Assembly: GCF_045037415.1 (NCBI RefSeq)
Contig: NZ_CP173438.1
DNA from: Escherichia coli
GTDB lineage: Bacteria > Pseudomonadota > Gammaproteobacteria > Enterobacterales > Enterobacteriaceae
Strand: one strand, 5' to 3'
DNA: 64,000 bases
Shown in pieces: positions 2,514 to 58,815 of the stretch. Position 1 is the first letter of the stretch; each line of letters opens with the position of its first letter. Position numbers and translations under genes: made by a program. A model generated the notes under the pieces. That model worked only from the letters and a program-made list of their open reading frames with translations, did no database searches and was not told where the DNA came from.

Positions 2514-3674
2514 TTACCCCTTGTTTGCAGCCCGGAAGCCATTTTCCAGGTCGGCAATTAAATCTTCGCCATCTTCAATACCGGTGGAGATACGCAGCAG
2601 CGTCTCGGAGATCCCGGCGGCAGCACGCGCTTCTGGTGCCATGCCTGCATGTGTCATGGTTGCGGCGTGAGAGATTAAACTTTCCACTCCCCCTAATGAT
2701 TCCGCCAGCGTAAACAACGACAGCCCGCCCAGGAAACGACGCAGCGTCTGCTCATCGCCATCCAGTTCAAAACTCAACATTGCGCCAAAGCCTTTTTGCT
2801 GGCGCGCGGCAATTTCATGCCCCTGATTTTCCGGCAGCGACGGGTGATACAGTTTCTTCACCAACGGCTGGGTTTGCAGATATTTCACAATCGCCTGCGC
2901 GTTGCGCTGCGCCAGCTCCATACGCGGCACCAGCGTTCGCAACCCGCGCAGCAGCAGATAGCTGTCAAACGCGCCGCCCGTCACGCCAATATTGTTTGCC
3001 CACCAGGCAAGTTCAGTGACAACGTCCGGGTCTTTAGCAATCACTACGCCTGCCACCACGTCAGAGTGACCGTTCAGATATTTCGTGCATGAATGCAACA
3101 CCAGATCGGCACCTAATGCCAGTGGATTTTGTAATGCCGGGCTTAAGAAGGTGTTATCCACCACGCTCACCGCCCCGACTTCCCTTGCCAGATGGCAAAT
3201 TTTCGCAATATCCACGACGCGTAACAATGGATTACTTGGGCTTTCTACCAGTACCAGTTTGGGTTTTTCTGCCAGCGCTGCCCGTAATGCCTGTTCATCG
3301 CTTTGATCAACAAACAACACGCGATAGCAACCGCGTTTCGCCAGGCTGTCGAACAGGCGATAGCTACCGCCGTAGCAGTCGTGCGGCGCAACCAGCAGAT
3401 CGCCAGGTTTCAAAAAGACGGTCGTTACCAGGTGAATCGCGGACATGCCGGTATTAGTAAGTACGGCACCGGCACCGCCTTCCAGTTCTGCCAGCGCACG
3501 CTGAACCACATCGCGCGTTGGGTTGCCGCGACGCGAGTAATCATGCGCACGTGGTTCATTAAATCCGGTAAAGTTATAGGTACTGGAAAGATGGATGGGA
3601 GGGACAACGCAACCATACTGTTCGTCGTCATTTAACCCGCTACGCACTGCGATGGTGGCCTGTTTACGCGTCAT
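2514..3674 (-). CDS. metB: cystathionine gamma-synthase (PLP-dependent)
   Basis: ORF track gives 445 aa from 3851; the internal start MTRKQATIAVRSG at 3674 gives the expected 386 aa and leaves the operator region free. Confidence 0.92.
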   Translation of the reverse strand: MTRKQATIAVRSGLNDDEQYGCVVPPIHLSSTYNFTGFNEPRAHDYSRRGNPTRDVVQRALAELEGGAGAVLTNTGMSAIHLVTTVFLKPGDLLVAPHDCYGGSYRLFDSLAKRGCYRVLFVDQSDEQALRAALAEKPKLVLVESPSNPLLRVVDIAKICHLAREVGAVSVVDNTFLSPALQNPLALGADLVLHSCTKYLNGHSDVVAGVVIAKDPDVVTELAWWANNIGVTGGAFDSYLLLRGLRTLVPRMELAQRNAQAIVKYLQTQPLVKKLYHPSLPENQGHEIAARQQKGFGAMLSFELDGDEQTLRRFLGGLSLFTLAESLGGVESLISHAATMTHAGMAPEARAAAGISETLLRISTGIEDGEDLIADLENGFRAANKG

Positions 3675-3737
3675 GTGATGAAGTTCCCTGGGCTTTGTCG
3701 GTGAAATGTCAGGCACCAGAGTAAACATTGTGTTAAT

Positions 3738-3769
3738 GGACGTCAATACATCTGGACATCTAAACTTCT
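3738..3769. promoter_or_regulatory. four tandem 8-bp Met-box-like repeats (MetJ operator) in the metB-metJ divergent promoter region
   Basis: GGACGTCA ATACATCT GGACATCT AAACTTCT, each 6/8 to the AGACGTCT Met-box consensus, about 65-95 bp upstream of the metB start. Confidence 0.5.
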
Positions 3770-3950
3770 TTGCGTATAGATTGAGCAAATCCCAAATAGC
3801 CGTTAAAATTATATGCATTATCACGCCGACAGGTGCATTACACGATGTCACGGTAACGCCTGTACGGTAAACTATGCGGGTTTACGGTCAGTACCCACAT
3901 TAACTGTGTGGTCTGGTCTCAATTTATTGACGAAGAGGATTAAGTATCTC

Positions 3951-4268
3951 ATGGCTGAATGGAGCGGCGAATATATCAGCCCATACGCTGAGCACGGCAA
4001 GAAGAGTGAACAAGTCAAAAAGATTACGGTTTCCATTCCTCTTAAGGTGTTAAAAATCCTCACCGATGAACGCACGCGTCGTCAGGTGAACAACCTGCGT
4101 CACGCTACCAACAGCGAGCTGCTGTGCGAAGCGTTTCTGCATGCCTTTACCGGGCAACCTTTGCCGGATGATGCCGATCTGCGTAAAGAGCGCAGCGACG
4201 AAATTCCGGAGGCGGCAAAAGAGATCATGCGTGAGATGGGGATTAACCCGGAGACGTGGGAATACTAA
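3951..4268 (+). CDS. metJ: methionine repressor MetJ
   Basis: ORF track starts at 3813; the internal ATG at 3951 ([18 protein letters not shown]) gives the 105-aa MetJ. Confidence 0.93.
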
Positions 4269-4279
4269 AGCGGAAAAGA

Positions 4280-4308
4280 GCGGCGCGGAGTTAACCAGCC
4301 GCTTTTTT
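4280..4308 (+). terminator. rho-independent terminator downstream of metJ
   Basis: GCGGC / GCCGC stem followed by TTTTTT. Confidence 0.5.
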
Positions 4309-4327
4309 CATACATGGACGTTTAACG

Positions 4328-4936
4328 ATGAAAATCAGGCTACTGATCCCCGGCCTGCTGGTTTCTGTGCCTGCATTTGCCTGGCAACCACAAACCGGCG
4401 ACATCATCTTTCAGATCTCTCGCTCATCGCAAAGTAAAGCGATCCAACTGGCGACCCATTCCGATTACAGCCACACCGGTATGCTGGTGATACGCAACAA
4501 AAAGCCCTACGTCTTTGAAGCCGTCGGCCCGGTAAAATATACCCCGCTGAAACAGTGGATCGCCCACGGTGAAGATAGCAAGTACATCGTGCGTCGCGTT
4601 AAAGGCGAGCTAAATGCCGAACAACAGCAAAAACTGGCGCAAACGGCAAAACGTTATCTCGGTAAACCGTATGACTCCAGCTTCTCGTGGAGCGACGATC
4701 GCCAGTACTGTTCGGAAGTGGTGTGGAAGGTCTACCAGAATGCGCTGGGAATGCGTGTGGGCGAGCAGCAGAAGCTGAAAGAGTTCGATCTTAGTAACCC
4801 GCTAGTTCAGGCAAAGCTCAAAGAACGCTACGGCAAAAATATTCCGCTTGAGGAAACGGTAGTTTCACCACAAGCCGTTTTCGACGCGCCACAACTCACC
4901 ACGGTCGCCAAAGAATGGCCGCTGTTTTCCTGGTAA
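4328..4936 (+). CDS. yiiX: YiiX-like putative secreted hydrolase
   Basis: 202-aa ORF with N-terminal signal peptide (MKIRLLIPGLLVSVPAFA); sits between metJ and rpmE as yiiX does in K-12. Confidence 0.8.
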   Translation: MKIRLLIPGLLVSVPAFAWQPQTGDIIFQISRSSQSKAIQLATHSDYSHTGMLVIRNKKPYVFEAVGPVKYTPLKQWIAHGEDSKYIVRRVKGELNAEQQQKLAQTAKRYLGKPYDSSFSWSDDRQYCSEVVWKVYQNALGMRVGEQQKLKEFDLSNPLVQAKLKERYGKNIPLEETVVSPQAVFDAPQLTTVAKEWPLFSW

Positions 4937-51759: not shown

Positions 51760-52050
51760 CTAACGGTTAAGTGCTTGCAGCACATGTTGCGGATCATTGG
51801 CAATCGCTCGCAGCAAAGCCTTTGCAGGCCCGGTCGGTGAACGTCGCCCCTGCTCCCAGTTACGCAACGTGTCTACGCTTACGGAAATAAGATCGGCAAA
51901 TTTAGATTGTGACAACCCTGAAGCGCGGCGTATTTCTTTGATTTTCATAGCATCAACTTCAAAAGTCCGTGAAGGCTGTCGCGTTCCTTCAATAATTTCA
52001 TTCATCTGGGCCATGCTGTGAGTCAACCGCTCAAAAAGTGCCTTATCCAT
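51760..52050 (-). CDS. HTH (XRE-type) antitoxin, HigA-like
   Basis: 96 aa; helix-turn-helix IRRASGLSQSKFADLISVSVDTLRNWEQGRR; ATG directly abuts the upstream toxin stop (TAA-ATG). Confidence 0.75.
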   Translation of the reverse strand: MDKALFERLTHSMAQMNEIIEGTRQPSRTFEVDAMKIKEIRRASGLSQSKFADLISVSVDTLRNWEQGRRSPTGPAKALLRAIANDPQHVLQALNR

Positions 52051-52362
52051 TTACCACCTCGTATTTAACAACCGGAGCATTGCTTTTTCCTGGGGAGACA
52101 GATCATCTTTAATACCCTTACGATAAATAAGCAGTAATCTGATCTCATAATGTTTAACCTGATGAAAGTAAATAACCCTGACACCAGCACGTTTCCCCTT
52201 TCCTCCTGAGACCCATCGAACCTTTCTTAACCCACCAGTTTCAGGTATTACCTCACCATAGTCAGGATTCAAGGCCAGGAAAAACTGAAAACGACTGAAT
52301 TCATCGTCGTTCAGCAGTTTTTGAACATCTTCAGTAAAAATTTCCGTTTCGATGAAGAGCAT
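52051..52362 (-). CDS. RelE/ParE-superfamily toxin, HigB-like (toxin-first arrangement)
   Basis: 103 aa, MLFIETEIFTEDVQKLLNDDEF...GGLRKVRW...GVRVIYFH...IRLLLIYRKG; size, basic patches and coupling to a downstream HTH partner. Confidence 0.7.
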   Translation of the reverse strand: MLFIETEIFTEDVQKLLNDDEFSRFQFFLALNPDYGEVIPETGGLRKVRWVSGGKGKRAGVRVIYFHQVKHYEIRLLLIYRKGIKDDLSPQEKAMLRLLNTRW

Positions 52363-52482: not shown

Positions 52483-52504
52483 ATTTGCGAGGCGCTTTCC
52501 AGAT
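52483..52504. promoter_or_regulatory. conserved promoter/operator-like motif, partial copy C
   Basis: ATTTGCGAGGCGCTTTCCAGAT, one mismatch to the first half of copy A. Confidence 0.35.
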
Positions 52505-52578
52505 TTTTCACGCCCGTGAATTTCCCTGTATCCATCCAGCAAAAACGGGTGTATAAAACTGTACATTCATACAGCAAA

Positions 52579-53499
52579 ATGAGTTCTACTATGGCACTGG
52601 AAAAAGGAATTGCAGAGTTAGTCGAAGAGTTTATCGCTGCGGGTCGCCCCTCATCGCGCCAACAAAGTATTACGCAGCGCAGAGAGGGCTATATCGCCAG
52701 CGCTGTCCTTGCGGGTGAGACAGAAACGCGGGTAGATATTCAGACTATCGAACTTGAAGGGATGACCTTACGAATAGTGTCACCGCTGAATGCCCCGACA
52801 TTACTCCCGACGATAATTTATTACTACGGTGGCTGTTTTGTTAGCGGCGGGTTCGCAACTCACGACAACCAGCTGCGCCAGTTAGCCTATTACGGGCAAT
52901 GTCGGGTTATTGCCGTCCAGTATCGGCTGGCACCGGAACATACTTTCCCCGCCGCCCATGATGATGCACAACGAGGTGCAGAATTAGTCCGGCAACACGC
53001 CGAACGACTCGGCGTTGATAAACAACGAATAACTCTTGCCGGTGACAGTGCGGGAGGGCATCTGGCGCTGGTAACTGCTTTGCGATTGAAGCGTGCTGGC
53101 GAGTGGCAACCAGCACAACTCATCTTAATTTATCCTATGCTTGATGCGACTGCGCATTTCGAAAGCTACATACGCAATGGTCACGATTACATCATCACAC
53201 GCGACACTTTACTGAGCGGCTTTGAGATGTACCTGCCAGGCATTGAACGCAGGCATCCTGAAGCCAGCCCTATTTGGCGCAATGATTTCAATGGCTTGCC
53301 ACCTGTACATATCATTACCGCTGAATACGACCCACTTTGCGATGAAGGTGAAGCGTTGTATCACCGCATGACAGGGCAAGGAGTGCAATGCACCTGCCAA
53401 CGCTACCTTGGCGTTATCCACGGATTTTTTCAGTTAGGTGGTATCAGTGAGGCTGCGCGATCGGCGTTACGGGATGTTGCCTGGAGAGCGGGAAGGTAA
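52579..53499 (+). CDS. alpha/beta-hydrolase-fold esterase/lipase
   Basis: oxyanion-hole region YYYGGCF and nucleophile elbow GDSAGG; ORF track starts at a GTG (52516) inside the conserved motif, ATG at 52579 or 52591 preferred. Confidence 0.7.
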   Translation: MSSTMALEKGIAELVEEFIAAGRPSSRQQSITQRREGYIASAVLAGETETRVDIQTIELEGMTLRIVSPLNAPTLLPTIIYYYGGCFVSGGFATHDNQLRQLAYYGQCRVIAVQYRLAPEHTFPAAHDDAQRGAELVRQHAERLGVDKQRITLAGDSAGGHLALVTALRLKRAGEWQPAQLILIYPMLDATAHFESYIRNGHDYIITRDTLLSGFEMYLPGIERRHPEASPIWRNDFNGLPPVHIITAEYDPLCDEGEALYHRMTGQGVQCTCQRYLGVIHGFFQLGGISEAARSALRDVAWRAGR

Positions 53500-53562
53500 C
53501 TCCGGACCAGGGCCCAGAAAAGGTTTTCAGATTGAAAACCTTTTCAGTCAAGTAAAACGCCC

Positions 53563-54552
53563 CTACTCTTCTTCGTTCCCGCCCTCTTCATACGGGCCAA
53601 ATGGCTTCGCGGGCAGAACGATATACGTGCCTTCAAACACTGCACCCGGCGTCTCGTCGCCAAAGATTTCTACTTGCATCTGCACCCGTGCTTTTCGTCC
53701 GCGCGCCAGACGGTCGAGATCGCCACTTAAGGCACCAAGGTCGGCTACCGCATGGGGTTTTCCGCTAATCGGCTTGCTGTAGCGGATATGCGCATCCGCC
53801 AGAATAATCGTTCCGCCGAGGTGGCGTTCGCGCAGCATCAGCCAGATAAGCCCCCAACCGGTGAGCGTAGCCAGCGAGAATAAACTCCCGGCAAACAGCG
53901 TGTGATGCGGATTCTGATTGCCGGTTTCCGGCATGGTGGTGATAAATTTTTGCCCGGTATATTGCTGAATGCGCACACCCATTTTTTCGCTTAACGGGAT
54001 ATGTTCATACCACGCTTGCTGGAGCTGGGCGCACCAGTCGCCGCGATGAAGAATATCATCCAGAGTGGCGACGGGTTTAATCATCAGAAAATGGCGAATC
54101 GGCGTGGTGGTTGGCGTGGTGATTTCACCCTGATTAACAAACCCCAGCTTGGCGAAAAACTCCACCGCGTCTTCACGGGCGCTACAGGTCACGCGCTTAA
54201 CGCCTTCCTGACGTGCCACCGACTCCAGGGTCATCGCCATCAGCGTGCCTAACCCTTTGTCCTGCACGTCGGGATGAACGGCCATAAAGCGAATGGACGC
54301 TTCATTGTCGGCATTAATATACAGTCGGCCTACCGCTACCAGATTACCCTGCTCGTCGACGACCATCTGGTGATGCGCCATCGCATCCCACGCGTCGCGT
54401 TCCGAACCTTTTGGTTGATGCAGGGGCTTACGCAACATTTCCCAGCGAAACTGATAGTAACGCTCTAATTCTTCTTCTGTTTGTGGAACCCGAAGGTGAT
54501 ACATAGCGATACTCTCTCTTGTTTCCCGTGACAACCCTGGAAGCTGGCTCAT
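53563..54552 (-). CDS. yiiD: GNAT acetyltransferase / hotdog-fold fusion protein YiiD (FabY)
   Basis: 329 aa; N-terminal GNAT region and C-terminal thioesterase-like region. Confidence 0.88.
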
Positions 54553-54986
54553 ACCTGCAACCAGAATGTCACGGGGCCATCATTGACCAGCGATACCTGC
54601 ATATCCGCAGCGAAGCGTCCTGTTTGCGTGTTCATATCTTGCTGACGGCAGCGTTCGACGAAATAGTCATATAACGCCTCTGCGCGATCCGGTGATGCGC
54701 CTTTGGAGAAACTTGGGCGCATCCCCCGTTCGGTATCTGCGGCAAGGGTAAACTGGGAAACCACCAGTACACTGCCGCCCGCCTGTTGCACGTTGAGATT
54801 CATCTTGCCTTCGGCATCGCTAAAGATGCGGTAGCCGAGTACACGCTCGCACAGACGGTTTGCTTTCTGTTCGTCGTCATCCTTTTCGACACCCAATAAC
54901 ACCAAAAGTCCCGCGCCAATTTCACCCGTCACTTCTCCCTCCACGGTGACGCTGGCACGGGTTACGCGTTGAATTAATGCAATCAT
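54549..54986 (-). CDS. dtd: D-aminoacyl-tRNA deacylase
   Basis: 145 aa [17 protein letters not shown]...; SQFTL motif; 4-nt overlaps with both neighbours. Confidence 0.93.
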
Positions 54987-55855
54987 GGTTCGTCGTCTTC
55001 TTCTTGTTCAGCAGCTTGTTTTAATTTGCGGTATTCCCCGAGAGTGACAGTAATTTCCGCGCCAAGCAAGACGATACACCATGTCCAGTAGACCCAAACA
55101 AAGAGAATGGGGATCACCGCCAGCACGCCGTAAATGAGCTGATATGACGGGAACATGGTGATATAAAGCGCGAAACCTTTCTTTCCTGCTTCGAACAGGA
55201 GCGCGGCGACAAACGCGCCGACAATCGCGTCGCGGTTAGGTACGCGAATGGTAGGAACGATGCTGTACAGCAACCAAAAGGAGATCCACGATAACAGCAG
55301 CGGAAAAATACGCAGCACGTTGTCGATGACAGTATTGAGATCGCTCGCCCAGCGCAGGGAAAGCAGATAGGAGCTGATCGCCAGACTGGCCCCTGCCAGC
55401 AGCGGCCCCAGCGTTAAAATCATCCAGTACACGGCAAACGAGTAAATTTTGGGTCGCGCTCGTTTACTGCGCCAGATGGTATTCAACGCGCTATCGATGG
55501 AGTACATCAACAATAACGCCGTGACGATCAGCCCGCACGCCCCGACGGCGGTCATTTTGTTGGAATTGGCGACAAACTGTTCGATATATCGCTGGATAAC
55601 ATCGCCAGTAGCAGGCAGAAAGTTGGCAAAAATAAAGTGACGCAACTGAATGCTGACGTCGGAAAACATGGGAAAAGCGGCGAAAAGCGCAAAAACAACG
55701 GCAACCAGCGGCACTAATGAGAGCAACGACACATAGGCAAGGTTACCTGCCAGGGTTGTCATGTTGTCCTCATCAATGCGTTGCCAGAGTAGTTTTAGCC
55801 AGGCCCATAGTGGACGGGTACGATGCCTGGCTTTGTCCTGAATGGTTTTTAGCAT
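54983..55855 (-). CDS. yihY: YihY/BrkB-family inner membrane protein
   Basis: 290-aa polytopic membrane protein. Confidence 0.88.
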
Positions 55856-56448
55856 AACACCTTCGCGAAATAGTCCGGGATGGTGGTTTTATCTTTCACC
55901 AGAATACTAGTAATGCCTAGCCGATTAGCTCCTTCTATATTATCGGCGTTATCGTCGAAAAAGACCGTATCGTCTGGTGAAAAACCTTCTGCCCGCAAAA
56001 CATGCTGATAAATTCGTGCTTCAGGTTTGCGCATACCCAAGTCTTGCGACAGATAGATATGGTCAGCAGCATCACGGATTTCCGGGTATTCCTCCGGCCA
56101 GAAGGTAGTATGCAGGCGGTTAGTATTGGAAAGCACCACCACGCGATGCCCCTGCTCACGCAGTTTATGCATGATGGCGATCACTTCCGGTCGTAGCGCA
56201 ACAAATACCGCCTGCCAACCGTGGGAGAACTGCTCATAGCTTAGCGGCAGGGCCATCTCATGACACAGTGCCTCTGCGAACGCTTCGTCGCTAATTTCCC
56301 CACGCTCATGCTGATGAAACGCCTCGCCCATGTGGAAACTCTTCTTAAGCGTAGCCAGTGGAACACGCGTTAAATCGCTCCAGGCCCCCAGCACACGGTT
56401 AAAGTCGATATCGACAATCACATTACCTAAATCAAAGATATAGAGCAT
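55849..56448 (-). CDS. yihX: HAD-family sugar phosphatase YihX
   Basis: internal start [15 protein letters not shown] gives 199 aa with the HAD motif I DxG. Confidence 0.88.
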
Positions 56449-56588
56449 TTTTGCCTCCTTTCGCGCCACAAGAAATTAACTGTAGCGGGAAAGGATGGGT
56501 TTGGCTATGTGGCAATAAGGGTAATCTTGTGATGCTGATTGCGAAAAAGCAGAGTAATTTCACTGGCTTTTTCGCAATAGATGAATGG

Positions 56589-57521
56589 TTAAGATTCAGG
56601 TGTAAATTGCCAACGAGTTTCGATGACCAGCGGCTTATCTGGTGTCACAAATTCCGGCGTTAGATTTATTGCGTTAGGTGCCTGAGTCAGCGGGTTAATA
56701 CAGGTGGCATCGGGCTGTTTATCAAATACCACCAGACTGTTTGCAGAAGAGGTCATGGTCATCGCGAGTTTACCAGGCCACAGTAACTTAACCTTCACCC
56801 CGTCATAAAAACCAAAACAGTCATCCCAGGGACCAACTTGAGGAGAGATACGATTTCCAGTTGGCAGTTCATCACTACCCGCTTCTTCTTGCCAGTCCGC
56901 ATCAAAAAGCACCTGCAACGATTCTGTATTTTGCGGAGTCAGCTTTTTCGCAAACCACGGATGCCAGCCTGCGGAGGCCGGGAATGTATCGGCATATGAA
57001 TGGACTTCCAGTTGCAAAACCAGCGCATCGTTCTCCAGCAAAAAAGTCTGAATCACTTCCCCTTGCCAGGGCCACGGTGAAGTCAGGGGCATACGTAAAG
57101 TCAGGGAATCTGCTGTTTTGTCGATGATTTCCCACGTTGAGTAACAAGCCATACCATGCAACGCATGTGGTGGTTTATTGGCGGGTAAAGAATAACATTG
57201 CCCACCAGCATTCAGCGTCGCATTCCCCAGTCGCCCTGCCCACGGCACCATTGGGAAACAGCCATACTGAAAAGCTCTGCGCTGCGGCTGCCATTGGCGT
57301 AATACTTCAGAACCAAATGCCTTTAACGAGGTTATCCTGGCACCATCATGCGGATAAATCTGCAGGTGAATATTGCCTTTTTCCAGCGTCACTAACTCTC
57401 CTACAGGCCCAGGCCATGGCGCGTCAAACGCCTGTTGTAGCGCCAGGTAATGCTCGTTTTTTCGTTCAGTTTTCATGAGATTGTTCCCTGATGTAGCGGT
57501 AAGAAGCGGTTTCTTGTTCAT
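56589..57521 (-). CDS. aldose 1-epimerase-family protein, YihR-like
   Basis: GWHPWF and CFPMVPWAGR motifs resemble mutarotase-family YihR; start ambiguous (57521 gives 310 aa, 57476 has the better SD); either start overlaps the stop of the upstream MFS gene. Confidence 0.7.
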   Translation of the reverse strand: MNKKPLLTATSGNNLMKTERKNEHYLALQQAFDAPWPGPVGELVTLEKGNIHLQIYPHDGARITSLKAFGSEVLRQWQPQRRAFQYGCFPMVPWAGRLGNATLNAGGQCYSLPANKPPHALHGMACYSTWEIIDKTADSLTLRMPLTSPWPWQGEVIQTFLLENDALVLQLEVHSYADTFPASAGWHPWFAKKLTPQNTESLQVLFDADWQEEAGSDELPTGNRISPQVGPWDDCFGFYDGVKVKLLWPGKLAMTMTSSANSLVVFDKQPDATCINPLTQAPNAINLTPEFVTPDKPLVIETRWQFTPES

Positions 57522-58815
57522 CGGTTGGCTCAATCAGCCAGACGCAAACAAAGGAAAGAACTGAGACAGCAAATAAAAACAGAGCGACATACCACGGTTT
57601 TCCTCCCCCTAGCGCCAGCAAACTTGAGGCGATAAGGGGGCTTAGTCCGCCAAGAATCGCGGAAAATTGATAAGCAAAAGAAAGGCCGGTATATCGTACT
57701 TTGGTACCGAACATGCGGGTGAAAAGTGTTGGCTGCACGGCAAACATCATCGTCGGACCTAAGTTGTAGCCAAGGATCATACTGCACCAGATGATGAGCG
57801 TACTTTTGCTATCCAGTAATAAGAAGAAAGGAAACGCGAACAGGACACAAAACCCTGCTCCCGACAAATACAGACTTTTTTGACCTATACGATCTGATAA
57901 CCATCCAACCAATGGACAACTGAAAATACCGATCGCCGAGGCAATCAACATACCCGTCAGGGGAATATCTCGCGACAATGCTAATTGGCTGGAAATATAG
58001 ACAATACCAAAGGCGTTAATAATATTAGAGGAGACACTTTCCGCCAGCCTCGCACCCAGTGCCAATAAAATATTTCGTGGATGTTTTTTGAATAATTCAA
58101 TCAACGGAGGAACGGACTTTTCTTTATTATTCGTCGTTTTTTGCTTTTGAAAATCCAGCGTTTCTTCGGTATGCAGGCGGATAAACAGCCCAACGATCAA
58201 CATCACCGCAGAAAGCCAAAACGGAATGCGCCATCCCCAGGAGAGAAACTGCTCCGAAGTAAGAAAATGGTTACAGAGAGCAAAAATACCGGTTGCCAGC
58301 ATAATACCCACAGACGCAGCCGTTTGCGGGAGTGAACCTAAAAATCCGCGTCGGGATTCGGGCGCTGATTCTATGGTCATCAATGCCGCTCCGCCGTACT
58401 CGCCACCAAGACCAAAGCCCTGAATTAAACGTAGCACCATTAATATGAGCGGTGCCCAGATCCCAATTTCCTGATACGTCGGAATAAAACCAATCAAAAA
58501 TGTGGAGCAACCGACAATAGCCAACGTCCAGATAAGCGTTATTTTTCGCCCTATTTTATCGCCAAAATGACCAAAGACGATGCCACCTAAAGGACGAGTC
58601 AGAAAACCGACACCAAAGGTCGCAAAGGAAGCTATAAGACCTATAAAAGGATCGCTGTCTGGATAAAACAGCGGTGCAAATACCAGTCCTGCTGCCGTGC
58701 CAAAAATAAAGAAGTCATACCATTCCATTAACGCGCCTGCGAAACTGCCCATAACGACACGTCTCATGGCTTTACCGGAAAGCCCTTCACGCGGTGCGGG
58801 TAACTTTTCAGACAT
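57466..58815 (-). CDS. MFS transporter, metabolite:H+ symporter (MHS) type
   Basis: 449 aa, about 12 TM; EWYDFF motif and GDKIGRK loop typical of ProP/KgtP/ShiA-type carriers. Confidence 0.8.
   Translation of the reverse strand: MSEKLPAPREGLSGKAMRRVVMGSFAGALMEWYDFFIFGTAAGLVFAPLFYPDSDPFIGLIASFATFGVGFLTRPLGGIVFGHFGDKIGRKITLIWTLAIVGCSTFLIGFIPTYQEIGIWAPLILMVLRLIQGFGLGGEYGGAALMTIESAPESRRGFLGSLPQTAASVGIMLATGIFALCNHFLTSEQFLSWGWRIPFWLSAVMLIVGLFIRLHTEETLDFQKQKTTNNKEKSVPPLIELFKKHPRNILLALGARLAESVSSNIINAFGIVYISSQLALSRDIPLTGMLIASAIGIFSCPLVGWLSDRIGQKSLYLSGAGFCVLFAFPFFLLLDSKSTLIIWCSMILGYNLGPTMMFAVQPTLFTRMFGTKVRYTGLSFAYQFSAILGGLSPLIASSLLALGGGKPWYVALFLFAVSVLSFVCVWLIEPTDEQETASYRYIREQSHEN

Follow-up and report, generated by a model that had tools for sequence, protein, structure and literature searches.

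The yihX-yihY-dtd-fabY operon of Escherichia coli: conserved start/stop overlaps at two junctions and a probable 44-nt gap before fabY

The closest described system is the E. coli K-12 operon yihXY-dtd-fabY (b3885-b3888), which is contained, as yihXY-dtd-yiiD, in a RegulonDB-derived list of four-gene operons. Huber et al. 2023 (PMC10666635, Table S2) tabulated distances of -7, -4 and -4 for the K-12 yihX-yihY-dtd-fabY junctions. Termination-reinitiation (TeRe) coupling at ATGA/TGATG overlaps was described by Huber et al. (2019, PMC6728339; 2023), who observed in E. coli reporters that reinitiation was distance-dependent in all native overlapping pairs tested and that a gap of about 38 nt abolished 80-100% of it. 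Another comparable case is the dcw cluster, in which ftsI-murE-murF-mraY likewise show three consecutive negative distances in one operon (-13, -3 and -6); however, the dcw genes share a pathway, whereas the genes of the yihX operon have no known common one. The function of the last product, FabY/MadA (YiiD), has been reported (PMC8666670), and both experimental groups, as well as the curated K-12 record, number the protein by a 329-aa form.

The region analysed here, within a stretch of 64,000 nucleotides of E. coli DNA (the window), is this known housekeeping operon, whose overlaps are already found in databases and in a published table. It was verified that genes, order, strand relation and junction strings are the same as in K-12, and that the coding block is conserved, homology between both strains starting 68 nt before the yihX ATG and ending exactly at the fabY stop. 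The flanks differ, with an aldose-1-epimerase/MFS cluster upstream in this strain versus csqR in K-12, and an alpha/beta hydrolase plus a toxin-antitoxin pair downstream versus yiiE/yiiF. The fabY start is placed here 48 nt further downstream than in the K-12 model. The features are collected in Table 1.

Table 1. Features of the yihX-yihY-dtd-fabY region, with positions numbered along the window
Feature	Coordinates	Strand	Remarks
Candidate sigma-70-type promoter	56479..56507	minus	-35 TAGCCA (56507-56502), 17-nt spacer, -10 TACAGT (56484-56479)
yihX Shine-Dalgarno AAGGAGG	56454..56460	minus	strong; anti-SD duplex -11.6 kcal/mol
yihX	55849..56448	minus	NF006991 equivalog, 404.7 bits vs cut-off 295, aligned 1-199 of 199; Pfam HAD match
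yihX stop / yihY start overlap ATGCTAA, 7 nt	55849..55855	minus	read from sequence
yihY, BrkB/YihY-family inner-membrane protein, 290 aa	54983..55855	minus	NF002457, 477.1 bits vs cut-off 307; PF03631, E 4e-60
yihY stop / dtd start overlap ATGA, 4 nt	54983..54986	minus	read from sequence
dtd, D-aminoacyl-tRNA deacylase, 145 aa, without Shine-Dalgarno	54549..54986	minus	TIGR00256, 255.9 bits vs 101.5, aligned 1-145
dtd stop / in-frame fabY-ORF ATG overlap ATGA	54549..54552	minus	frame open to Met17
dtd-fabY spacer, 44 nt	54505..54548	minus	fabY codons 2-16 in the 329-aa K-12 model; most likely untranslated leader
Conserved purine block AAGAGAGAG	54512..54520	minus	putative ribosome-binding site for the conserved fabY start; -5.1 kcal/mol
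fabY (yiiD, madA), 313-aa conserved-start form	53563..54504	minus	PGAP; K-12 model extends to 54552, 329 aa
Hairpin GAAAAGGTTTTCA-ATC-TGAAAACCTTTTC	53517..53545	unstranded	between convergent fabY and alpha/beta-hydrolase gene; looks like a bidirectional intrinsic terminator

A first-pass annotation of this DNA had named the products as a HAD phosphatase, a membrane protein, a D-Tyr-tRNA deacylase and a GNAT/thioesterase fusion. The protein identities were borne out, since all four proteins score above the curated cut-offs of their families (NF006991 for YihX, NF002457 for YihY, TIGR00256 for Dtd and TIGR02447 for FabY/MadA). Together with Pfam matches, these profiles assign a HAD glucose-1-phosphatase, a BrkB/YihY membrane protein, a D-aminoacyl-tRNA deacylase and a protein combining a GNAT domain (PF00583) with a malonyl-ACP decarboxylase hot-dog domain (YiiD_C, PF09500; TIGR02447 164.3 bits, cut-off 97.1). 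A longer GTG-start yihX ORF, reaching 56469, was rejected because the Shine-Dalgarno (SD) sequence would fall inside it, and NF006991 aligns over the whole of the shorter form. A literature search for a link between yihX and RpoS found nothing useful, and an Rfam scan of 52500-57500 at E<=1 returned no match.

The reading that we favour, and consider likely, is that of a known operon in which the yihX/yihY and yihY/dtd overlaps are probably coupled while fabY is initiated independently, 44 nt after dtd. One mRNA of about 3 kb would be produced from a conserved sigma-70-like promoter lying some 30 nt ahead of the ribosome-binding site of yihX and would end at the hairpin just past fabY. Ribosomes would load at the strong yihX SD sequence, and yihY and dtd would most likely be translated by ribosomes that terminate and then reinitiate on the spot, since neither gene has a usable SD and their ATGs overlap the preceding stops, so that YihY and Dtd output would be tied to the translation of the preceding gene. 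In turn, fabY would remain outside the coupled chain and would start independently at Met17 of the 329-aa model, given the conserved AGAGAGA block of its own.

A comparison of 80 gammaproteobacterial species points to yihY-dtd as the oldest module of the operon, since this pair is found in Enterobacterales, Vibrionaceae, Aeromonas, Pasteurellaceae and Orbaceae, while fabY is joined downstream in Enterobacterales and Vibrionaceae and yihX is joined upstream only in Enterobacterales. Across Enterobacterales the arrangement is conserved, yihX and yihY being gained or lost as modules.

The spacing of the first two junctions follows the same families. The yihX/yihY distance is -7, -4 or -1 in most Enterobacteriaceae and several Erwiniaceae, whereas a gap of about +18 to +174 accompanied by a strong SD is found in most Yersiniaceae, Hafniaceae and Budvicia. 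The yihY/dtd distance is -4 in most Enterobacterales and also in Photobacterium and Vibrio, and the TGA of this overlap is embedded in the invariant Met-Ile codons of dtd (ATG-ATH). Both distances in the window lie inside the range of about -8 to +6 nt used for overlapping pairs and both start codons are secure, the -7 ATG being the sole start candidate of the yihY ORF. The likeness to TeRe pairs consists of co-directional overlaps of the -4 class with SD-less downstream genes, and the -7 of yihX/yihY belongs to the same phase class as the TeRe -4 and -1. On the other hand, the products of the yihX operon do not form part of a known complex, the Huber table marking the pairs as 'CMPLX not', and the parts of the Huber tables covered hold no COG1295-COG1490 pair.

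The SD energies vary with this spacing. In the window, yihY has -3.9 kcal/mol, versus the far stronger value of yihX, and dtd has -1.9 kcal/mol, where the background mean is -2.8. Across species, yihY scores about -1 at overlapping junctions; of the six separated loci scored, four lie at about -8 and the remaining two at -5.3 and -2.9. For dtd, the median is -4.3 when overlapped (n=48) versus -6.15 when gapped (n=30), a difference with a Mann-Whitney p=1e-5 that is uncorrected for phylogeny; orthologues of yihY/dtd parted by a gap carry strong SDs, and some overlapping Vibrionaceae and Erwiniaceae loci keep decent SDs. According to published ribosome profiling, dtd is nevertheless translated at ordinary efficiency (TE 0.80), despite its aSD value of -0.88. 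Taken from sequence comparison, coupling from yihX to yihY and from yihY to dtd is plausible, since the overlaps are conserved across families and the downstream genes are essentially devoid of SD sequences.

The overlaps could instead have arisen neutrally, through genome compaction and drifting stop codons, with every gene initiated de novo and independently of upstream translation. The Met-Ile codons of dtd always offer a TGA in the +1 frame, onto which the variable, low-complexity C-terminal tail of YihY could simply run, and related species shift freely among -7, -4, -1, +2 and larger gaps. In addition, Pectobacteriaceae and Morganellaceae have lost yihY entirely and yet retain dtd, and initiation at the correct site without SD pairing has been reported (PMC7043885). 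Proximity is also frequent, since 707/2,987 co-directional E. coli gene pairs (24%) lie within -8 to +6 nt; therefore, a chain of overlaps does not exceed chance, and dozens are expected per genome. However, loci that have lost the overlap show a strong SD before dtd or yihY, and loci that have it show none, an alternation that is expected if the overlap substitutes for the SD. This observation, together with the behaviour of the native pairs in the reporters of Huber et al., makes the neutral origin improbable in comparison with coupling.

Regarding transcription, the genes lie on one strand with gaps of -7, -4 and +44, without room for a terminator or promoter between them. The block CATAGYCAAA..CTTTCCCGCTACAGT is conserved across Enterobacterales at constant spacing from the ATG of yihX, with a predicted transcription start at about 56472 in the window. 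A degenerate promoter pattern 28-34 nt before the yihX ATG was found in 52/64 loci versus 1.3% of control windows, counts to be read in light of the fact that the pattern was derived post hoc, from the very alignment on which it was counted. At the other end, the hairpin forms a 13-bp stem in the minimum-free-energy fold, and on either strand UUUUCU follows the inner 8 bp of this stem; the hairpin was missed by the consensus terminator scan because the stem is A+T-rich. The -35/-10-like element before yihX and the hairpin after fabY are the predicted ends of the operon. These predicted elements and the RegulonDB operon speak for co-transcription of the four functionally unrelated genes, which the database assignments suggest. 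In a proteomics table, yihX, dtd and yiiD carry one common identifier, read here as an operon number (apparently DOOR-type), and its last, unlabelled abundance column gives about 247 for YihX and 216 for YiiD.

It could be argued that these genes are not one expression unit and that internal promoters in yihY or dtd drive dtd and/or fabY, so that their adjacency would say little on co-regulation. This would agree with a transcription start found by 454 sequencing (2 reads) inside yihY, 275 nt upstream of dtd and near window position 55261, which is listed in the Mendoza-Vargas transcription-start table, with the leader and ribosome-binding site that fabY would have of its own, and with Aeromonas, where fabY lies 700-1100 nt from dtd. 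Nevertheless, two reads represent weak support, both operon assignments place the four genes in a single unit, and the only promoter-like element conserved across families is the one upstream of yihX. The default consensus promoter scan reported no minus-strand sigma-70 match within the genes, nor any other minus-strand promoter, the candidate upstream of yihX included. Separate transcription of dtd or fabY is accordingly unlikely, and a single transcript remains the preferred reading.

The third junction differs from the other two. The first-pass annotation had described a chain of 7-, 4- and 4-nt overlaps, and the strings ATGCTAA, ATGA and ATGA are all present; however, the third overlap hinges on the upstream ATG of the fabY ORF. 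It was observed that every fabY in the comparison begins with ATG-TAT-CAY, corresponding to Met17 of the 329-aa K-12 model (window 54504). An AGAGAGA purine block precedes this ATG by 6-9 nt across the Enterobacterales loci, with an equivalent of the GGAGAAGGA type in Vibrionaceae, and the SD energy at Met17 in the window coincides with the median over 72 loci (-5.1 kcal/mol), whereas the sequence preceding the -4 ATG constitutes a poor, mis-spaced SD. In the RefSeq PGAP annotation of a strain that matches the queried 3.3 kb at 100% identity, fabY begins at Met17, giving 313 aa and a 44-nt gap, and fabY homologues in databases are mostly 313 aa long, covering 95% of the query.

The spacer itself evolves as non-coding sequence. 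It shows no codon periodicity, as its third-position share of diversity is 0.37 whereas 417 coding windows have a median of 0.81 and none falls below 0.59, and its amino-acid identity is 0.60 versus 0.89 and 0.92 in the flanking genes. Its length varies from 23 to 150 nt, and its sequences look unrelated between families. The long form is barred in many genera by an in-frame stop or a frameshift relative to the -4 ATG, only the Met17-equivalent start being possible in Cedecea, Dickeya, Photorhabdus, Brenneria, Photobacterium, Vibrio and others. The idea that an open long frame implies coding was rejected, since one non-coding (+2) frame of the spacer is equally stop-free (1/30 loci). No conserved RNA structure was found in the spacer, as the RNAalifold consensus reached -0.8 kcal/mol and a hand-picked 4-bp stem was paired in 79.5% of cells versus 74.7% after shuffling. 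Because the junction is nearly invariant among E. coli genomes (>=99% identical in 5,332/5,425), within-species polymorphism is powerless to judge the spacer. Direct evidence on where FabY begins was sought and not found: none of these genes is listed in the TRAINSPOTTER supplements, and a literature text search retrieved nothing relevant.

Considering the conserved Met17 start, its own ribosome-binding block, the non-coding spacer and the 313-aa PGAP model, the dtd/fabY overlap is probably a 44-nt gap with independent initiation, fabY being annotated too far upstream, and we infer that the true FabY N-terminus lies at Met17. The overlap would appear only because dtd ends in GTA-TGA before a G+C-rich, stop-poor spacer. 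With the conserved start, dtd/fabY falls outside the distance range of TeRe pairs, and the coupling from dtd to fabY that had been proposed earlier finds no support. That all three junctions are true overlaps, with a 329-aa FabY and ribosomes handed from yihX to yihY, dtd and fabY in turn, is very unlikely against this evidence, even though the ATGA exists with its frame open to Met17, K-12 annotation and Table S2 give -4, this ATG and its open frame are kept in 24/30 Enterobacteriaceae-type loci, and YihX and YiiD abundances are similar. A lesser possibility, still conceivable given that retention and the 329-aa numbering in use, is that Enterobacteriaceae make a minor 329-aa isoform only by reinitiation at the -4 ATG after dtd termination.

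The discovery value of the locus is small, since overlap chains of this kind are common and the operon, overlaps included, already figures in the standard databases for E. coli and in a genome-wide table in the literature; the addition to the known record is probably a small correction of the fabY start. The 329-aa FabY/YiiD/MadA model used for K-12, by UniProt and by two enzyme groups probably includes 16 untranslated residues, and the shorter FabY bears on how residues are numbered, on how constructs are designed and on any claim that dtd and fabY are coupled. Moreover, the operon represents a clean natural example, across related genera, of SD loss with overlap and SD presence with a gap. 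Finally, the conservation of the yihY-dtd pair offers one of the few hints at what YihY does. Since the SD-less start/stop overlap is kept from Vibrionaceae to Enterobacteriaceae, YihY and Dtd might be functional partners whose ratio is set by coupling, for instance in disposing of or exporting the D-amino acids that Dtd releases, although we regard this as a long shot.

Family scans above curated cut-offs bore out the identities of the four genes, namely a HAD glucose-1-phosphatase (yihX, NF006991), a YihY/BrkB membrane protein (yihY, NF002457), a D-aminoacyl-tRNA deacylase (dtd, TIGR00256) and a GNAT plus YiiD_C hot-dog fusion. The latter protein, YiiD, is now named FabY or MadA, and its C-terminal domain acts as a malonyl-ACP decarboxylase, through which fatty-acid synthesis can be initiated independently of FabH (PMC8666670). 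Additionally, FabY has been tied to cAMP levels during lag phase in Salmonella (PMC13353551). The yihXY-dtd-yiiD unit is among the 47 four-gene operons of a paper using RegulonDB transcription units, and yihX, dtd and yiiD carry a common identifier, read here as an operon number, in a proteomics table; the four genes thus likely form a single operon.

Features of the yihX-fabY region and its flanks. Energy, anti-Shine-Dalgarno (SD) duplex energy at the start codon (kcal/mol; background mean -2.8, sd 2.6, from all ATGs of the region)
Feature	Coordinates	Strand	Energy	Remarks
NadS/HigA-like antitoxin ORF	51760-52050			abuts toxin ORF
HigB-like toxin ORF	52051-52362			0-nt gap to antitoxin ORF
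13-bp hairpin	53517-53545			U-runs on both strands
fabY long ORF	53563-54552	minus	-3.4	329 aa; -4 ATG, mis-spaced
fabY Met17	54504	minus	-5.1	313 aa; PGAP start
dtd-fabY junction region	54470-54600			
dtd/fabY overlap	54549-54552			ATGA
dtd ORF	54549-54986	minus	-1.9	145 aa
yihY/dtd overlap	54983-54986			ATGA
yihY ORF	54983-55855	minus	-3.9	290 aa
yihX/yihY overlap	55849-55855			ATGCTAA
yihX ORF	55849-56448	minus	-11.6	199 aa, counted from ATG
CCTTTCC/GGAAAGG pairing	56454-56495	minus		predicted fold
Candidate -10	56484-56479	minus		TACAGT; ends 30 nt before yihX ATG
Candidate -35	56507-56502	minus		TAGCCA; 17-nt spacer follows
Conserved block	56479-56515	minus		CTTTCCCGCTACAGTTAA
12-bp inverted repeat	56538-56578			TTGCGAAAAAGC...GCTTTTTCGCAA
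Aldose 1-epimerase gene	56589-57476	as MFS gene		upstream of yihX
MFS transporter gene	57466-58815	as epimerase gene		11-nt overlap with epimerase gene

The first-pass annotation had described overlaps of 7, 4 and 4 nt and tight translational coupling of functionally disparate genes. The bases of all three overlaps are present, and those of yihX/yihY and yihY/dtd are true, but that of dtd/fabY rests on a doubtful start codon. Such a chain is ordinary, and this one is already on record: the K-12 distances were published as -7, -4 and -4 (Huber et al. 2023, Table S2; negative values are overlaps). In the same study, 707 of the 2,987 co-directional gene pairs of E. coli (24%) had distances of -8 to +6 nt. 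If independence is assumed, a genome with this base rate should hold about 40 runs of three junctions in that range, which is probably an underestimate given the clustering of overlaps in operons. Therefore, the chain is real but within expectation, and ftsI-murE-murF-mraY likewise shows consecutive overlaps (-13, -3, -6).

The doubtful start was approached by fetching the dtd neighbourhoods of 80 species representatives and mapping the four genes and their junctions in each. In RefSeq (PGAP) annotation, taken from a strain 100% identical across the 3.3 kb queried, Met17 of the long ORF is the fabY start codon, 44 nt past the dtd stop; the curated K-12 record gives 329 aa. Across the 72 fabY-bearing loci, the gene opens ATG-TAT-CAY-CTN (ATG-TTT in Vibrionaceae), with a purine block (AAGAGAGAG, GAGAGAA or AAAGGGG) 6-9 nt 5' of this ATG, and the distance from the dtd stop varies from 23 to 150 nt, with sequence apparently unrelated between families. 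Either a stop in frame or a length change that shifts the frame bars the long form in Cedecea, Dickeya, Photorhabdus, Brenneria, Tatumella ptyseos, Photobacterium, Vibrio and others. Where the long frame is open (19-21 Enterobacteriaceae species), the 45-nt segment showed no codon periodicity, third positions holding 0.37 of its diversity (random expectation 0.33), whereas none of 417 same-sized windows within dtd and fabY fell below 0.59 (median 0.81). Its translation averages 60% amino-acid identity, versus 89-92% in the flanking genes, and the other two frames reach 52-57%, little below it. The open long frame itself is uninformative as a sign of coding, as the +2 frame is equally stop-free (stops in 1 of 30 loci for either frame), and the -4 ATG is composed of the A of the last dtd codon, GTA, and the TG of the TGA stop. 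Taken together, these observations indicate that fabY most likely starts at 54504, 44 nt from dtd, and that the dtd/fabY overlap is probably an annotation artefact. A minor long isoform may exist, given that both laboratories studying FabY number it by the 329-aa form and that a literature search found no N-terminal or initiation-site data for this start. Identity across the junction region, which takes in the apparently non-coding spacer, is at least 99% for 5,332 of 5,425 E. coli genomes.

The two remaining overlaps are real and conserved, and look functional. The -7 ATG is the sole start codon of the yihY ORF, and the dtd family alignment begins at residue 1. Most Enterobacterales, as well as Photobacterium and Vibrio, have a yihY/dtd distance of -4, and this is therefore the oldest junction. 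For yihX/yihY, most Enterobacteriaceae and several Erwiniaceae have a distance of -7, -4 or -1, and most Yersiniaceae, Hafniaceae and Budvicia one of about +18 to +174. The yihY/dtd overlap could have arisen neutrally, since dtd always begins ATG-ATH (Met-Ile), which builds in a +1-frame TGA into which the variable acidic YihY tail may merely run. Across species, the dtd SD is weaker behind an overlapping or abutting gene (median -4.3, n=48) than behind a gap (-6.15, n=30; Mann-Whitney p=1e-5, phylogeny not corrected for). For yihY, the SD is about -1 with overlap and, when separated, about -8 in four of six scored loci (-5.3 and -2.9 in the remaining two). AGGAG or AAGGA precedes dtd in most of the lineages that lack yihY and have a gap between yihX and dtd. 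In published ribosome profiling, K-12 dtd is translated at an ordinary efficiency (0.80) although its SD score is -0.88. Together with the contrast between overlap and SD, this is the pattern predicted by termination-reinitiation. Thus, coupling is plausible at yihX/yihY and yihY/dtd. In E. coli, a 38-nt gap abolishes 80-100% of reinitiation (Huber et al.), which argues against coupling from dtd to fabY once the 44-nt gap is accepted, making it unlikely.

A default consensus scan found no minus-strand promoter. Alignment of yihX upstream regions revealed a conserved block, CATAGYCAAA-N-CTTTCCCGCTACAGT, containing candidate -35 and -10 hexamers, and a degenerate version of this pattern, derived post hoc, occurs 28-34 nt from the yihX ATG in 52 of 64 loci versus 1.3% of control windows. 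The conservation reaches beyond a plain -10, and, with a C directly in front of TACAGT and a TAA behind, the element resembles sigma-S-type -10 regions; a literature search for a yihX/RpoS link gave nothing useful. In the predicted fold, the yihX ribosome-binding site (GGAAAGG) can base-pair to CCTTTCC, located 5' of the -10; this would occlude the SD only in read-through transcripts from upstream genes, those from the predicted promoter being spared. A weak internal transcription start (two reads) has been reported 275 nt upstream of dtd, and internal promoters may exist within the operon. The 13-bp hairpin follows fabY, in the interval before a convergent hydrolase gene.

Homology of this strain to K-12 begins 68 nt upstream of the yihX ATG and ends exactly at the fabY stop codon; thus, the four-gene unit and its leader form a conserved block between two strain-variable regions, present in 5,421 of 5,426 complete E. 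coli genomes. K-12 has a csqR/yihV arrangement in place of the epimerase/MFS neighbourhood, and lacks the toxin-antitoxin pair and the alpha/beta-hydrolase gene ending at 53499. The perfect inverted repeat, just past the epimerase gene, falls where the sequence upstream of yihX is strain-specific and probably terminates the upstream operon; the 152-nt intergenic region as a whole has a folding z-score of -6.7. IS150 lies within yihX in 2 of 5,425 E. coli genomes, with yihY-dtd-fabY intact downstream (for example, L084, from E. coli DETEC-E480, 2750-4795, equivalent to yihX of the window), providing a natural polar-insertion test of the operon.

The cluster is modular. Among the representatives, Gilliamella and a Pasteurellaceae species have yihY-dtd only, Vibrionaceae have yihY-dtd-fabY, most Enterobacterales have all four genes, and Pectobacteriaceae and Morganellaceae, which lost yihY, have yihX-dtd-fabY; in Aeromonas, dtd and fabY lie 0.7-1.1 kb apart. 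What is added here is limited to a proposed corrected start for fabY and a comparison across species of overlap with SD. That the cluster has a mosaic history and that yihY is dispensable at this locus speak against the four products being obligate functional partners, and the operon looks like one among many mixed housekeeping operons.
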